64,000 nucleotides of DNA from Candidatus Woesearchaeota archaeon (GCA_016180135.1 JACPBV010000023.1:7405-71404), one strand, 5' to 3'. Shown: positions 512 through 6,345, counted from the stretch's first letter. Program-made: numbers and translations. Notes: generated from the sequence alone by a model not told the origin.

Positions 512-2209
512 ATGGCGGCGCATCAGAAGTATTTTCTCCTGAAGTTCTTTCTGGCAGTTTCTATCCTCTTCATACTTTCAGGCATTATATTTGCGCTCTC
601 CGATACTGGCATCGCGCAGCAGGGCGTTACAGAAGAAAGCCAGCAAGACTGGCATTGCAATAACCTACCTGGTTCTGTCAAAGCACACTGCGAGTCATTT
701 AACGCAATTGATGGCAGGCTTGCTGGAGCCAATTGGTATCTTGGCAAAAATAACAGCCATGGCTCGATAGCATGGACAAGAAGCCCTCTTGTAAACGGGT
801 ATGCTATCATGTATCGCGTCACCAACGACACATATTACCTTGATAAGGCAATAACCCAGATCGATGACATTTTGGCATTGAGGGATGATAACCGGGGATT
901 TCTCGACTACACCAACCGCTCGCTTGCCGGATGGAGCGCAACGAATTATTCGAACACATCTTTGGGTTTGCGGTTTGCGGTCCACAGCGGAGTCATCATC
1001 TACCCGATGCTGGACATTGCCAGGTCCGTCCTGCAAAAAAGCGGGATGCAGGAATTTTATACCCAAAAAGCACTGGAGTATATTGAAGAAGCAAAAAAAG
1101 TAGCTGATGCCCACGAAGAGGAATGGGTCAACGGCCCTGATACAAGGGTAAGCGGAAGCGAAGGCTACTATCAATTCCCCCCAGATTTTCCCGCAGACCG
1201 GCCGGGGATGAATCTCCCCAATAACCAGCAGCTTGCCATGGGCTCTTCCCTTCTTCTTCTCTATAACCTCACCGGCAATGGCACTTTTCTTGATAAGGCC
1301 GAACGCATGGGGATGATGCTAAAAAATGATTTAAACAAGTCAAATGGCACCTTTAACTGGCATTATTGGCCGGGCAAAGAGGGGATTAATGTAACTAAAA
1401 ACAGGCCCGAGGATATCGGCCATGGCCATGGGGGCATTGACATCAATTTTGCCTATGATGCATGGGCGCAGGGGGTGCTGTTTAATGATACTGAAATGGG
1501 CATATTTGCCAGCACTTTCACCTCAAAGATATTTAATGGCAACCTCAATAATATATCCTTTCGCGTCAATGGAAGCACCACGGTGAACACAACTGATTAC
1601 AAGAATATTGGAAGATGGCTTTACCTCACTCCTTTTGATGCAGAGGTTTACCGCATCATCGAAAAGATTTATGCCTTCAACAATTTTTCCCTCACCGCAA
1701 ACAGAAATGCCCTCGAGGGCTATGCGATGCTCGCTGAATTCTGGCCGGGAAACAGTCCCAGGAGTTTTAATCTGAGCCTGCAGAAGGGATGGAGCCTTTT
1801 TTCAGTCCCGCTTGCGCTCAACAGCACTTCCCATGGGCTTTCCCAGCTTCTCCAGCAGGGCCTTATCTTGTCGTTCAACAACACCGGGAAAAAATTTTAC
1901 CGTGCTTCCGAGATTAAAGCTGGAGAAGCTTATATAACAAAATCTGCCCAGGAAATAATAATTCCCCTGCAGGGCGCCGGGAATGAAAATGCTGTTTTAA
2001 ATATCACCCCAGGGATCAGCCTTATCGGATTTCCTTTCTCTGAGGCAATAAATGCAAGCGATTTCGTTGAGACAATACTGGGCGATGAAAATGTTTCTTT
2101 GTATGCGTTCAATCAAACCTGGCTGGTGTATAATCCTCAGGCAGGGATGGCGGGGCAGTCATTAAAGGTATTAAAGCCGGGATCTGCATACTGGGCAAGG
2201 AAGAGGTGA
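512..2209 (+). CDS. Secreted/surface glycoprotein; probable six-hairpin (alpha/alpha)6 enzyme-like domain plus C-terminal 'LQKGWSLFSVP' surface domain
   Basis: N-terminal signal peptide, many NxS/T sequons, repeated helical motifs (YYLDKA, FLDKA) and a GW[NS]L-type C-terminal domain; fold call is inferred. Confidence 0.5.
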   Translation: MAAHQKYFLLKFFLAVSILFILSGIIFALSDTGIAQQGVTEESQQDWHCNNLPGSVKAHCESFNAIDGRLAGANWYLGKNNSHGSIAWTRSPLVNGYAIMYRVTNDTYYLDKAITQIDDILALRDDNRGFLDYTNRSLAGWSATNYSNTSLGLRFAVHSGVIIYPMLDIARSVLQKSGMQEFYTQKALEYIEEAKKVADAHEEEWVNGPDTRVSGSEGYYQFPPDFPADRPGMNLPNNQQLAMGSSLLLLYNLTGNGTFLDKAERMGMMLKNDLNKSNGTFNWHYWPGKEGINVTKNRPEDIGHGHGGIDINFAYDAWAQGVLFNDTEMGIFASTFTSKIFNGNLNNISFRVNGSTTVNTTDYKNIGRWLYLTPFDAEVYRIIEKIYAFNNFSLTANRNALEGYAMLAEFWPGNSPRSFNLSLQKGWSLFSVPLALNSTSHGLSQLLQQGLILSFNNTGKKFYRASEIKAGEAYITKSAQEIIIPLQGAGNENAVLNITPGISLIGFPFSEAINASDFVETILGDENVSLYAFNQTWLVYNPQAGMAGQSLKVLKPGSAYWARKR

Positions 2210-2293
2210 GGTTTATTTTATGTTTGGAACGCTATCAAGCTTTTACCGATGATTTTTTCTCCCTGAAAACCTATACTATTCTCCAGAATGATG

Positions 2294-2758
2294 CTAAGCC
2301 TTCTTTTGGTAATATAGGATATCGAATTCTGCATACCCTTCTTTCTTTTCAACAATCCATTCCCTTTCGTCAAAGCCAGGGAAGAAGGTGTCGCCGGGAT
2401 AGTACTTCTTAACCCACGAAAGTATCATCTTGTCTGCAAACGGAAGAGTCTGCCTGAAGATAGTTGAGCCGCCGATGACAAAAATTTCTTTTCCGAAAGA
2501 TTTTGCCCTTTCAACAGCGCTTTGGATATCATGAAAGACCTCGCAGCCCTGAATTTCGTGCGCTGAGCTGGATATAACGATGTTAACCCTTTTCGGGAGA
2601 GGGCGGCCAATGGATTCGTAGGTCTTCCTCCCCATAATGATAACGCTGTCTTTTGTGGTGTTCCTGAAATGCTGCATCTCCTCAGGGATGTCCCAGGGCA
2701 GCCTGCCGTCTTTGCCGATGACTTTGTCCTTTGTCAGTGCACAGATGAGGGTAATCAT
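2294..2758 (-). CDS. folA: Dihydrofolate reductase
   Basis: VIGKDGRLPWDIPEEMQHF, IMGRKTYESIGRPLPKRVNIV, FVIGGSTIF, GDTFFP motifs. Confidence 0.97.
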   Translation of the reverse strand: MITLICALTKDKVIGKDGRLPWDIPEEMQHFRNTTKDSVIIMGRKTYESIGRPLPKRVNIVISSSAHEIQGCEVFHDIQSAVERAKSFGKEIFVIGGSTIFRQTLPFADKMILSWVKKYYPGDTFFPGFDEREWIVEKKEGYAEFDILYYQKKA

Positions 2759-2830
2759 TGAAGAATGGCTAATTTGACCTATTATATAAATTTTTGTTTA
2801 ACAAAAGATAATCCTCAAAGAGAAAGTGAA

Positions 2831-3973
2831 TCAAATCGCACACACAAACTTCTTCACCCTGACATCATTTCCGGCCAAATCTGCCTTTGAGAGGACATAT
2901 AGATTCCCGTCATTGTCAAAATCCATCATGTAGGCATTGTAGAGATACTGGTTTTGGTTTCCCTGGAAAGTTCCCGGGTTGGGGTTGAGTAGATAGTTCT
3001 TGAGAAGTGCGCCGGTATTGTCAAATACCTTGATGCCGTATTGGTGCAAAATAAAAATATTTCCGCCATCATCGACCAGCATCTGCTTTGCAGGAAGGAA
3101 ATAGCCTCCGCTGTACCACGATGAAGGGGCAGTCCTAAGGTCTATTGATTTTTGGTAATCCCTTTCAGCCTTGTTTCTGACTTCGACCTGATATCCCCAG
3201 TTTGCTGAGTTACTTGGTTTTATGAATATGAGGAAATAATAATCGCCTGATGGCGCGACTGCCATATGATAGGAGGGATCCGTTGCTTCAAGAGTCCTTT
3301 CGTATGTTCCGGAAAGAGTATATTGGTTAAAGACAAACTTTCCCCTGCTGTCAATAACGGGGGTATAATATTTGCTTCCGGAGTAGACAGACAATGCCGA
3401 AGCGCCTGGACCGGAGCCAACTCCGCCAAAACCATACCATTTTTGCGGCGCAGTCCCGATTGTTCCGGAAGGCCCCCCGTTCCATGGCGGGCTGTACCAC
3501 TTTAAAGTATTCTTTTCAGCGATGTAAACTTTTCCGTCTTCACCGACGCCGAACATCCTGTCCGCTTCAGAAGGGTTGTCAAATTCTTTTTTAGGCGTGC
3601 CATCGCTTCCCACGATATAGTTAAATTCCCTTCCTGGCCATGGGTATGCTGCAAAAAGCAAGAGATCGCCGTTATCAAGCGCCTTTAACCCCGGATATTC
3701 GGCAAAAAGGCCTTTATTCTCGGCAGTCTCAGGGATATTTGCAAGAATGCTGCCTCCGGAAATATTCTGTTCAAATACATAGCTGCCGCACAGCCCGGTG
3801 GATGATGCAAGCGTGCTGAAGACTGCTGCAACATTTTCCCCGCCGTCGACCCACTGACCGACCAGCGCAACGATAGCGCTTTCAGGCTCCTGATCCGTTA
3901 AGGCAGCCGGGGAAAAAGCAATCAATGCCATCACCAATGCAATTCCGGCAATGAAAGCTCCTTTTGTTCCCAT
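2831..3973 (-). CDS. Secreted NHL-like beta-propeller protein
   Basis: Signal peptide plus repeated blades (FGVGEDGKVYIAE, MAVAPSGDYY, MLVDDGGNIFIL..GIKVFD, MDFDNDGNLYVL). Confidence 0.65.
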   Translation of the reverse strand: MGTKGAFIAGIALVMALIAFSPAALTDQEPESAIVALVGQWVDGGENVAAVFSTLASSTGLCGSYVFEQNISGGSILANIPETAENKGLFAEYPGLKALDNGDLLLFAAYPWPGREFNYIVGSDGTPKKEFDNPSEADRMFGVGEDGKVYIAEKNTLKWYSPPWNGGPSGTIGTAPQKWYGFGGVGSGPGASALSVYSGSKYYTPVIDSRGKFVFNQYTLSGTYERTLEATDPSYHMAVAPSGDYYFLIFIKPSNSANWGYQVEVRNKAERDYQKSIDLRTAPSSWYSGGYFLPAKQMLVDDGGNIFILHQYGIKVFDNTGALLKNYLLNPNPGTFQGNQNQYLYNAYMMDFDNDGNLYVLSKADLAGNDVRVKKFVCAI

Positions 3974-4036
3974 AATGCAGATTCCTGCCTTTAATCCTTA
4001 AAAATGTTTTGATTTTGACGAATTCAAAATCGGCAA

Positions 4037-4065
4037 TCAGACGGCAATCTCAAACTTAATCCTCG
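4037..4065 (-). repeat. Displaced copy 1 of the thyA 3' end (encodes RIKFEIAV*)
   Basis: The 22-bp core GCAATCTCAAACTTAATCCTCG at 4044-4065 is identical to 4729-4750 and 5477-5498. Confidence 0.92.
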
Positions 4066-4108
4066 ATGGAAGGTTAAAAAGAATTCTCCCCATGTTTCCT
4101 AACGGAAG

Positions 4109-4492
4109 TCACAATACAAATGCCCCCTCAACCCCCTTAAAGTCATTATCTGTCGCCAAAAGCATCGAAGAATTATTCTTTGCTGTGGCAAGGTGGAGAG
4201 CATCGATAAGCCCGAACTTCTGGTGCGCAGAGCGTATCTTCATCTTGAGCTTTGAGGCTTCGAGGGCGATGGGAACAGTCAGGGGAAGGATAGCTGCTTT
4301 ACTTTTGATGAAATCCAGCCGGCCAGTAAATGGCCTCCCTTCACGCCCATATTTGTCGGCAAGCTCTGCAATTGCCAGGATTGATGTGCCAAGGCTCTTC
4401 TCTTCAAGAATCTTCTGGATGGCAATTCCAGCCTCGCTCCCGCCAAAGTAATCAGCCCATGCAGAGCTGTCCACGATAAAATCAAAGCTCAC
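4109..4492 (-). CDS. vapC: PIN-domain VapC toxin
   Basis: IVDSSAW, AIAEL, GLIDALHLATA, ATDNDF; overlaps the antitoxin stop. Confidence 0.9.
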   Translation of the reverse strand: MSFDFIVDSSAWADYFGGSEAGIAIQKILEEKSLGTSILAIAELADKYGREGRPFTGRLDFIKSKAAILPLTVPIALEASKLKMKIRSAHQKFGLIDALHLATAKNNSSMLLATDNDFKGVEGAFVL

Positions 4493-4679
4493 GGACCTTC
4501 ATCCTGTCTTCCTTTTTCCATCTCATCCCCTTATCAGCGCCGAACATTGAGTTGGGTATTTTTTTCTTTTGGGAAAGTGTGTTGAGGATGACCTCGTCAT
4601 AGGAGGCTGCGTTCTCTTCTTCCTTATATTTCTCCAAGAGCTGCTTTGTCGTTTCTGAAACCTGGATAGTAGTTGGCAT
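4482..4679 (-). CDS. vapB: Archaeal VapB-type antitoxin
   Basis: 65 aa, PTTIQVSETTKQLLEKYK...SYDEVI...SMFGA, directly upstream of vapC. Confidence 0.85.
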   Translation of the reverse strand: MPTTIQVSETTKQLLEKYKEEENAASYDEVILNTLSQKKKIPNSMFGADKGMRWKKEDRMKVREL

Positions 4680-4684
4680 AAAGG

Positions 4685-4715
4685 CTATAGTTATAGCTAT
4701 AGTTATAAAGGTTTT
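4685..4715 (-). promoter_or_regulatory. BRE/TATA promoter with tandem operator repeats
   Basis: Minus strand AAAACCTTTATAA plus two copies of CTATAGTTATA immediately before the vapB start. Confidence 0.65.
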
Positions 4716-4721
4716 GGTACG

Positions 4722-4793
4722 TCAAACGGCAATCTCAAACTTAATCCTCGGATAGGATCCATAGCCGGTAATTTCAGAATCTTCTGATTGCCA
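4722..4793 (-). pseudogene. Displaced copy 2 of the thyA 3' end (WQSEDSEITGYGSYPRIKFEIAV*)
   Basis: Ungapped alignment to thyA 5470-5541 gives 56/72 nt and 16/23 aa identical, with several synonymous differences. Confidence 0.92.
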
Positions 4794-4822
4794 AAGAATA
4801 CCTGAGGAGCTTTGAAATATCC

Positions 4823-5236
4823 CTATGAGCTGCTCCCGCTCTTTTTCGAGATGTCTATAACCTCTTCCAAATGGGTCAAATGAAAATCACCGGTCACCAC
4901 TTTTCCATTAAGGAATTTGGCTGTGGCGAGAATTATGCCGTCAATGAGGCCAAAACCTGTGAATCGCTTCCGTATCTCATTCTTGAGCCTTCCTGCCTGG
5001 AAGGCAATTTCTGGATTGATGGGCTGAAGCTGAGTATTGAAAGTTATAAAATTGGCAATCTCCTGCCACCGGGCATTAATCTTTCCTTTTGCATAGGCGT
5101 CTCCTATCTCAGCGAGAACAACTGAGGGAGTGCACAGGGGTTCTTCACCGCTCTCGAGAAGCTTTCTCACTTCAATTCCCTGGCTGCTTCCCTCAAAATA
5201 TTCTATCCATGCATAAGTGTCAAGAACAAGCGTCAT
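4823..5236 (-). CDS. vapC: PIN-domain VapC toxin
   Basis: LVLDTYAWIEY, VVLAEI, GLIDGIILATA, VVTGDFH; ATGA overlap with the antitoxin. Confidence 0.9.
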   Translation of the reverse strand: MTLVLDTYAWIEYFEGSSQGIEVRKLLESGEEPLCTPSVVLAEIGDAYAKGKINARWQEIANFITFNTQLQPINPEIAFQAGRLKNEIRKRFTGFGLIDGIILATAKFLNGKVVTGDFHLTHLEEVIDISKKSGSSS

Positions 5237-5430
5237 ATTCTGTCCTTTCTGTCTCTGGAGAAAGATTCCCGCAGTCCCTTTGCTGCCCCGAACATGCTCT
5301 GCCTTACCTGTATCTTCTCTTCAGCGAGCTGGGACAGCAGCTGGTCAAATGATGACGCGCCCATGTTTTCCTTCAGTGACTCAAGCTCTTTGTGCGTCTT
5401 TAAGGTCACGGTGATGGTTTTTGCTTCCAT
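5233..5430 (-). CDS. vapB: Archaeal VapB-type antitoxin
   Basis: 65 aa, KTITVTLKTHKELESLK...SFDQLL...SMFGA; same family as 4482-4679 but diverged. Confidence 0.85.
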   Translation of the reverse strand: MEAKTITVTLKTHKELESLKENMGASSFDQLLSQLAEEKIQVRQSMFGAAKGLRESFSRDRKDRI

Positions 5431-5435
5431 ATTAA

Positions 5436-5465
5436 TAATAGATATTAGTAATAGATATAAATGTT
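5436..5465 (-). promoter_or_regulatory. TATA promoter with operator-like direct repeat
   Basis: TAATAGATAT at 5436 and 5449; minus-strand AACATTTATAT between the thyA stop and vapB. Confidence 0.55.
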
Positions 5466-5469
5466 GTGT

Positions 5470-6345
5470 TTACACCGCAATCTCAAACTTAATCCTCGGA
5501 TATGATTCATAATCAATAACTTCAGTATCCTCAGCCTTCCACTCAAAAATAGAAGTAAAATTCTTTGTTGAAATCTTTGGCAATGGATATCTGTTCGCGT
5601 CCCTCGATAACTGCTCTTTCGCCCCTTCAATATGGTTTTCGTAGATGTGGACATCGCCCAAAAATCCAACAAGCCTCCCTTCTTCCATCCCTGTTTCTTT
5701 GGCAAGAAGGTGCAGCAGCAGGCCGTAACTTGCAATATTAAATGGCAGCCCAAGCATAGTATCCACGCTCCTTTGGTCCCACATCAGATTTAATTTATTA
5801 CCAATCACCGTCACCTGGAAGCAATAATGGCATGGCGGCAGGGCCATCTTGTGCTTCGCAGCAGGATTCCATGCAGAAACGAGCATCCTTCTGTCAGTCG
5901 GGTCTTTTTTTAACGTCTCAACAACCATCCTGAGCTGGTCAATACCTTTGCCTCCATAATCAGAATCAAAGTTTTCATAATCCGCCCCAAAATGCCTCCA
6001 CTGGAACCCGTAGATAGCTCCCAAATCTCTTTCTTCAAACATTTTTTTCTTTGCAGCCCCATCATGCCCGTAAGGGGCTTTCGCAGGATTCGCCCATTCA
6101 TCCCAGATATGGTTGTTCCTGTCCTGCAGCCATCTTTTGTCCGTTATCCCTTTGATGAAGAACTCAAGCTCTATCGCAATAACTTTGAACGGCATCTTTT
6201 TTGTCGTAAGCAGCGGAAATCCTTTGCTCATATCATGCTCAAAGACTGCGCCAGCCATGGCAATTGTTTTTGTCCCAGTCCTGTTGGATACCAATACTCC
6301 TTGGGAAAGAACCTTTTTGACGAGCGAGAGATAGGCTTCCATCAT
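5470..6345 (-). CDS. thyA: Thymidylate synthase
   Basis: NRTGT, FPLLTTKKM, LGAIYGFQWRHF, ALPPCH, QRSVD, GLPFNIASY, GDVHIYENH. Confidence 0.98.
   Translation of the reverse strand: MMEAYLSLVKKVLSQGVLVSNRTGTKTIAMAGAVFEHDMSKGFPLLTTKKMPFKVIAIELEFFIKGITDKRWLQDRNNHIWDEWANPAKAPYGHDGAAKKKMFEERDLGAIYGFQWRHFGADYENFDSDYGGKGIDQLRMVVETLKKDPTDRRMLVSAWNPAAKHKMALPPCHYCFQVTVIGNKLNLMWDQRSVDTMLGLPFNIASYGLLLHLLAKETGMEEGRLVGFLGDVHIYENHIEGAKEQLSRDANRYPLPKISTKNFTSIFEWKAEDTEVIDYESYPRIKFEIAV

Follow-up and report, generated by a model that had tools for sequence, protein, structure and literature searches.

We find that two diverged vapBC cassettes lie one behind the other downstream of thyA in a small groundwater archaeon (Candidatus Woesearchaeota), and that each is followed by a displaced copy of the thyA 3' end. 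On the minus strand of the window, the 64,000-nt stretch of DNA that we analysed, the order is thyA, vapBC2, thyA-tail copy, vapBC1, thyA-tail copy, a 380-aa ORF and folA (Table 1). ORFs, repeats and two assemblies confirm the order from thyA to the second tail copy, which an initial annotation had proposed. The arrangement probably arose through insertion by single crossover at the conserved end of thyA and through loss at the same place, with host homologous recombination as the most likely machinery.

Table 1. Features of the thyA-folA interval, in minus-strand order (window positions).
Feature	Position	Strand	Evidence and details
thyA (thymidylate synthase, 291 aa)	5470-6345	-	ORF; Pfam PF00303 Thymidylat_synt E 1.5e-93
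thyA C-terminus, ...YPRIKFEIAV then stop	stop codon TAA 5470-5472; core copy A 5477-5498	-	
Cassette 2 promoter + operator	5431-5469	-	sequence, repeats, alignments; predicted promoter function
TATA-like TTTATAT, cassette 2	5455-5461	-	
Tandem 13-nt repeat, cassette 2 operator	5429-5454	-	reaches vapB2 ATG
vapB2 antitoxin, 65 aa	5233-5430	-	stop/vapC2 start overlap is ATGA
vapC2 PIN-domain toxin, 137 aa	4823-5236	-	Pfam PIN E 5e-14; tree clade
thyA-tail copy 2, reading WQSEDSEITGYGSYPRIKFEIAV then stop	4722-4793	-	core 4729-4750; stop codon TGA 4722-4724
Cassette 1 promoter + operator	4680-4718	-	sequence and repeats; predicted function
TATA-like TTTATAA, cassette 1	4703-4709	-	
Tandem 12-nt repeat, cassette 1 operator	4684-4707	-	
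vapB1 antitoxin, 65 aa	4482-4679	-	ORF; weak VAPB_antitox and DUF7557 matches
vapC1 PIN-domain toxin, 127 aa	4109-4492	-	GTG start overlaps vapB1; Pfam PIN E 3.3e-15
Spacer, vapC1 stop to core	4066-4108	-	barely thyA-like
thyA-tail copy 1, reading (S)RIKFEIAV then stop	4037-4065	-	core 4044-4065; stop codon TGA 4037-4039
Perfect 8-bp hairpin, GATTTTGA-ATTCG-TCAAAATC	4011-4031	-	read from sequence; just downstream of tail copy 1
380-aa ORF, hydrophobic N-terminal segment	2831-3973	-	between tail copy 1 and folA
folA (dihydrofolate reductase)	2294-2758	-	Pfam DHFR_1 E 6e-52

Each cassette comprises a TATA-like promoter, a tandem-repeat operator, vapB and vapC and contains no recombinase gene, in agreement with the initial description of self-contained promoter-plus-toxin-antitoxin units lacking an integrase. 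Both toxins score above the cut-off of the PIN family (PF01850), and inspection of the translations shows the acidic residues D8, E43, D97 and D115 in VapC1 and D6, E43, D99 and D118 in VapC2. The two 65-aa ORFs match VAPB_antitox (PF02697) at 20.6 and 18.2 bits, below the 27.9-bit cut-off (for vapB2, E 7.8e-4, under the Pfam cut-off), and sit directly upstream of the toxins, with overlaps of 4 and 11 nt. By their PIN toxin and overlapping upstream antitoxin, both pairs are predicted toxin-antitoxin modules of the VapBC type. The pairs had been called homologous but strongly diverged, and this is borne out by identities of 38% between VapC1 and VapC2 and 40% between VapB1 and VapB2. They are the only members of this vapBC family in the window's genome.

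Beyond the array, the hairpin just downstream of tail copy 1 is possibly the former thyA terminator. The 380-aa ORF gave no match in a Pfam scan and no DNA match in five other genomes (G001, G004, G005, G011 and G058) when window positions 2200-5470 served as query, and we regard it as lineage-specific cargo. A Pfam scan also returned no match for the 232-aa ORF adjoining thyA.

Direct repeats duplicating the 3' end of the target gene are present at both ends of the cassettes. They occupy 4037-4065, 4722-4750 and 5470-5498, and our repeat search agrees with the core and the unit lengths (685 and 748 nt) first reported. The 22-nt core (CGAGGATTAAGTTTGAGATTGC, encoding RIKFEIA) is exact at all three sites; over its longer extent, copy 2 (4726-4793) is 79% identical to the thyA end at 5474-5541. 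A 20-mer within the core has three matches in the window versus none in 100 shuffles, and just those three across the 1.51-Mb genome. The core is also exact in the corresponding copy at locus L101. Among species-representative genomes its sole exact match is in G004, and there were no exact matches in JGI metagenome contigs or in viral contigs.

Tail copy 2 keeps 16 of 23 ThyA residues by our count, as in the initial annotation, which took it for the end of another functional thyA allele. This is not simply so. Over its final 42 nt, copy 2 agrees with the functional thyA end of G004 at 41 positions. Upstream of these it carries changes at positions that are invariant among functional alleles; this upstream part is decaying. 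The flank lies about as far from one thyA allele as from any other (71-78%), and no source allele stands out. Weak similarity perhaps extends to about 4853. Upstream of its core, copy 1 is more decayed than copy 2, and the adjoining spacer matches the equivalent spacer after the vapC1-like gene of L100 at about 60% of positions. In the non-coding copies the flank is 72% identical and the core 20/20, which has a probability of about 0.0014 under uniform divergence. A core kept exact inside decaying copies is what would be expected of a functional att site; it could equally stem from gene conversion by the thyA tail. An extension of copy 2 into the vapC2 end (HLEKEREQL against HIEGAKEQL) matched too weakly to be claimed, and a candidate fourth remnant after the 380-aa ORF (GAGGATTA, 2809-2816) was not significant against shuffles (p 0.05-0.24). 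No extra tail copies were found near thyA in 60 relatives in a search that allowed 3 mismatches.

We compared the thyA-folA slot across relatives, as the initial annotation had suggested, and found that cassette number and content vary at this exact site. In about 18 of 24 relatives no more than about 300 nt separate thyA from a following folA, and among 79 metagenome loci the gap is within 150 nt in at least 62. None of these loci carries this vapBC family or a tail copy. Direct adjacency of thyA and folA thus appears to be the ancestral state. The two pairs seen in the window are not a fixed feature of the relatives. In a thyA clade of four lineages with the topology ((W, G004), (L097, L098)), where W is the window's genome, the slot of L098 is empty (thyA, 122 nt, folA), and in L097 thyA is followed after 22 nt by a vapB1-type gene. 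G004, together with L101, reads thyA, a 231-aa gene, vapBC2, a tail copy and another gene; at L100, a vapC1-like gene precedes a degenerate tail copy, which is followed by a 191-aa gene and folA. A second sister pair differs in the same way, with thyA-vapBC-msrAB in G005 versus thyA-msrAB in G011. The empty site of L098 carries the duplicated sequence once, and the inserts in W hold toxin-antitoxin genes only; the 191-aa, 210/231-aa and 'geneY' proteins of the relatives have no homologue in the window's genome. Among the 14 genomes of the taxonomic family, strong vapC2 matches (at least 49% identity) occur in three (G000, G004 and G005), all adjoining thyA, and matches in the others reach at most 39% identity.

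The variation had been expected to be bounded by the core, and between genomes the breaks in homology do coincide with the core or with the thyA stop codon. Two comparisons reach a tail copy, and in each the cassette homology stops precisely where the core has its 3' end: W and L101 are homologous from 5468 to 4729, W and L100 as far as 4044. Homology to cassette 2 of the G004 lineage begins at 5468, one base past the thyA stop codon. The cassette of G005 stands behind thyA without a tail copy, and in G004 there is no core between thyA and cassette 2, which are separated by the extra gene. These two cases indicate that not every rearrangement at thyA used the core.

We propose that the last codons of thyA are a recombination hotspot in this Woesearchaeal clade, located at the ancestral thyA-folA junction, where at least two independent events would have placed self-contained vapBC modules behind thyA. 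Each event would have been a single-crossover (Campbell-type) recombination inside the conserved tail, leaving thyA intact and a second tail copy on the far side of the insert; the tail copy nearest thyA would be the youngest. The enzyme would be the host homologous recombination machinery, acting on the 22-42 nt at the thyA end, where alone a long stretch is identical; no dedicated integrase would be needed. A point against this mechanism is that copy 1, at 29 nt, is short for classical homologous recombination. The same direct repeats would permit clean loss or exchange of a cassette, and the addiction effect of the toxin-antitoxin pair would favour its retention. The most parsimonious history would lead from thyA-folA to the arrival of cassette 1 and then of cassette 2, the latter in an ancestor shared by W and G004; individual lineages would afterwards have lost cassettes or gained extra cargo, and the 5' 320 nt of cassette 2 would have been exchanged between the two lineages more recently.

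The array may, on the other hand, be old, mostly vertically inherited and little mobile at present. Put most strictly, both cassettes and their tails would be ancestral, and the variation would reflect deletion between repeats and unrelated insertions, with no continuing capture; we consider this possible, on the doubtful side. Between W and L100, identity is 80.2% in cassette 1 and 80.4% in folA; between W and G004, it is about 80% in cassette 2 beyond the first 315 nt, 83-84% in thyA and 77% in folA. Since the cassettes have diverged about as far as thyA and folA, much of the variation could be old vertical inheritance combined with loss between repeats, and the array is identical in two assemblies of different runs. 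However, the first 315 nt of cassette 2 are 96% identical between W and G004 (VapB2 is 97% identical to the G004 copy at the amino acid level), which points to recent exchange, and presence or absence of a cassette differs within two sister pairs (L097/L098 and G005/G011). The VapB of G005 is moreover chimeric, with its DNA-binding and toxin-binding halves swapped between cassette types, which implies recombination between these types. A static array would also still have taken two separate captures at the tail to build, so that this account concerns the timing of the events rather than their mechanism.

It is unlikely that the core is a true att site at which a recombinase encoded elsewhere moves promoter-plus-toxin-antitoxin circles of ~0.7 kb. 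Such a system would be akin to integron cassettes or to SCC-like elements without a recombinase at rlmH. What speaks for such a site is that flanks at 72% surround a core with no change in any of the three copies or in that of L101, that homology between genomes stops precisely at the core end in two independent comparisons, and that the genome has two tyrosine recombinases. Both of these are Xer-type, Xer-sized PF00589 proteins of ordinary appearance encoded on other contigs, and their neighbouring ORFs of at least 150 aa do not look mobile-element-like. The search of the rest of the genome for recombinases and further core copies that the initial annotation had called for thus yielded tyrosine recombinases with no link to the site, no serine recombinase and no additional core; viral contigs also lack further core copies. 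Between thyA and folA, the ORF list holds no recombinase-sized ORF except the 380-aa ORF, and neither that ORF nor the 232-aa ORF adjoining thyA gave a match in Pfam scans. The core has no dyad symmetry, no inverted repeat is reported at the thyA-end repeat, repeat length varies (29, 72 and about 300 nt), and the junctions at the G005 cassette and at the 231-aa gene of G004 have no core.

The longest of these repeats lies at a different gene. In G056, a cassette of the vapBC1 clade adjoins an HhH-GPD glycosylase gene, and beyond the cassette is a diverged ~300-nt copy of the 3' end of that gene (tblastx E 1.7e-9). The same scar left by the same cassette clade at another gene, with a repeat of this length, argues for general homologous recombination and against a thyA-specific att system. 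At 29 other loci of this vapC family, DNA and translated searches for flanking direct repeats brought up a single convincing duplication of a gene tail (L088) and a single repeated promoter (L079); the remaining loci were at chance level. Cassettes of the same clade also occur elsewhere with no repeats, a further point against the att-site reading. Of the serial capture by an in-trans recombinase or short-homology recombination that had been envisaged, independent capture stands, and a dedicated att system at thyA is unlikely. We give similarly little credence to the wider idea that the core is the att site of a trans-acting recombinase, with an Xer-type enzyme as candidate, and the array the archaeal counterpart of an integron, with the thyA end in the place of attI and attC. 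Were the att-site reading true, conservation of the core within decaying copies would reflect selection for recombination; a cassette 2 circle, if it exists, would measure 748 nt and join the vapC2 end, pseudo-tail and core to GGTGTAAA and promoter 2.

The preferred reading, separate crossovers at the thyA tail, is set apart from an in-situ tandem duplication of the thyA tail plus one vapBC unit, followed by divergence, by the vapC tree. Similar unit lengths (685 and 748 nt) and a like gene order in both units speak for a duplication, which we hold to be very improbable. In the tree, vapC1 and vapC2 fall in separate, well-supported clades, and the supported groups that hold them (100/97 and 94/89) include proteins from several other families of the order; forcing the two together costs 153 lnL units (AU p about 1e-137). 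This rejects sisterhood and with it the origin in situ that the initial annotation had named as the outcome that would refute its account. Each cassette also has a far closer relative in another genome (82% and 84% amino acid identity), a single duplication would not yield the distal tail copy, and the core is 100% identical where the genes are saturated with changes. Wholesale later replacement of one duplicate would again be a capture event. These comparisons point to two cassettes of independent origin. The operator motif CTATAGCTATAACTATAGC also precedes type-1 vapB genes in L097, L079, L088, L104 and G005, and no relatives of vapC1 or vapC2 were found in viral contigs.

An assembly chimera, in which two strain variants were joined through the shared repeat, is scarcely credible: the genome is a metagenome-assembled draft and several relatives' contigs break at or near these cassettes, but two independent Logan assemblies from other runs (SRR4343430, spanning window positions 7492-1103, and SRR4343428, spanning 4863-1396) include the whole array and the junction of copy 2 into cassette 1, matching at 99.9% with no mismatch, and a shared repeat of 22-35 nt is small beside the k-mers commonly used in assembly.

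Few mobile elements can be recognised in DPANN archaea and CPR bacteria, although these lineages do exchange genes. A literature search found no description of the present arrangement in DPANN archaea. At this locus small selfish modules appear to have been added, stacked, swapped and lost with no recombinase gene in the array, the landing pad being the conserved last codons of a housekeeping gene. The locus offers a datable series of empty slot, one cassette and two cassettes, and half a cassette seems to have been exchanged recently between genera. If general, the process would explain why toxin-antitoxin modules often lie directly behind conserved genes in these lineages, and such islets could be sought by a simple sign, a small cassette with an orphan gene tail behind it.

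Several bacterial systems share parts of this architecture. In staphylococci, SCC and pseudo-SCC elements are inserted one after another, in tandem, at the rlmH (orfX) 3' end, with boundaries that each repeat the last bases of rlmH and with some units lacking a recombinase of their own. The thyA array is likewise serial at a protein-coding 3' end, with boundary repeats and recombinase-less units. However, SCC elements measure kilobases to tens of kilobases and their movement needs Ccr serine recombinases acting at a defined site, whereas this genome has no serine recombinase that we could find. Vibrio chromosomal (super)integrons carry small toxin-antitoxin pairs with their own promoters in cassette arrays, which they are thought to stabilise, and small self-promoted pairs are also the units here. 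An integron, however, comprises an IntI integrase together with attI and structured attC sites. The thyA array had been called integron-like, and we do not retain that term: between thyA and folA no ORF is of recombinase size except the 380-aa ORF, which has no Pfam match, there is no attI or Pc promoter at the array head, and in place of promoterless cassettes with structured attC sites we see cassettes with their own TATA-like box and operator, separated by a repeat that is simply the thyA end.

The scar resembles two known types more closely, and we suggest that it is a variant of them. In rhs C-terminal displacement, displaced tips accumulate in arrays through homologous recombination that proceeds by circular intermediates (2009, PMC2935791). 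As proposed for thyA, incoming DNA recombines within a conserved 3' portion of a resident gene and brings a new end with it, the former end comes to lie downstream, and repeated events build an array with the newest unit beside the gene and no integrase. Stacking of this type is seen here, with older ends downstream of an intact thyA, each with its own cargo, in non-sister units. Unlike rhs, the resident gene encodes a housekeeping enzyme and its tail is functionally unrelated to the VapBC cargo, the displaced pieces are just about 10-24 codons, the cargo is a self-promoted vapBC pair rather than a toxin tip with its immunity gene, and the host is a DPANN archaeon.

Addiction modules also insert with long target duplication and no mobility genes (Furuta et al. 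2010, PMC2853133), as do restriction-modification units according to the account of earlier work given there (Nobusato et al. 2000, cited in PMC2853133). The criterion for a long target duplication is >30 bp, and the survey recovered no archaeal case (PMC2853133); the duplications here are 68-72 nt for copy 2 and 29 nt for copy 1. The thyA cassettes differ from those insertions in that two different modules are stacked at one target, the copies are diverged rather than near-identical, and the modules are toxin-antitoxin rather than restriction-modification systems. The likeness, which as there emerges from genome comparison, is of a small addiction-type module without a mobility gene, flanked by a direct duplication of tens of bases of a sequence that the genome with the empty site carries once and that in some cases overlaps a gene's 3' end.

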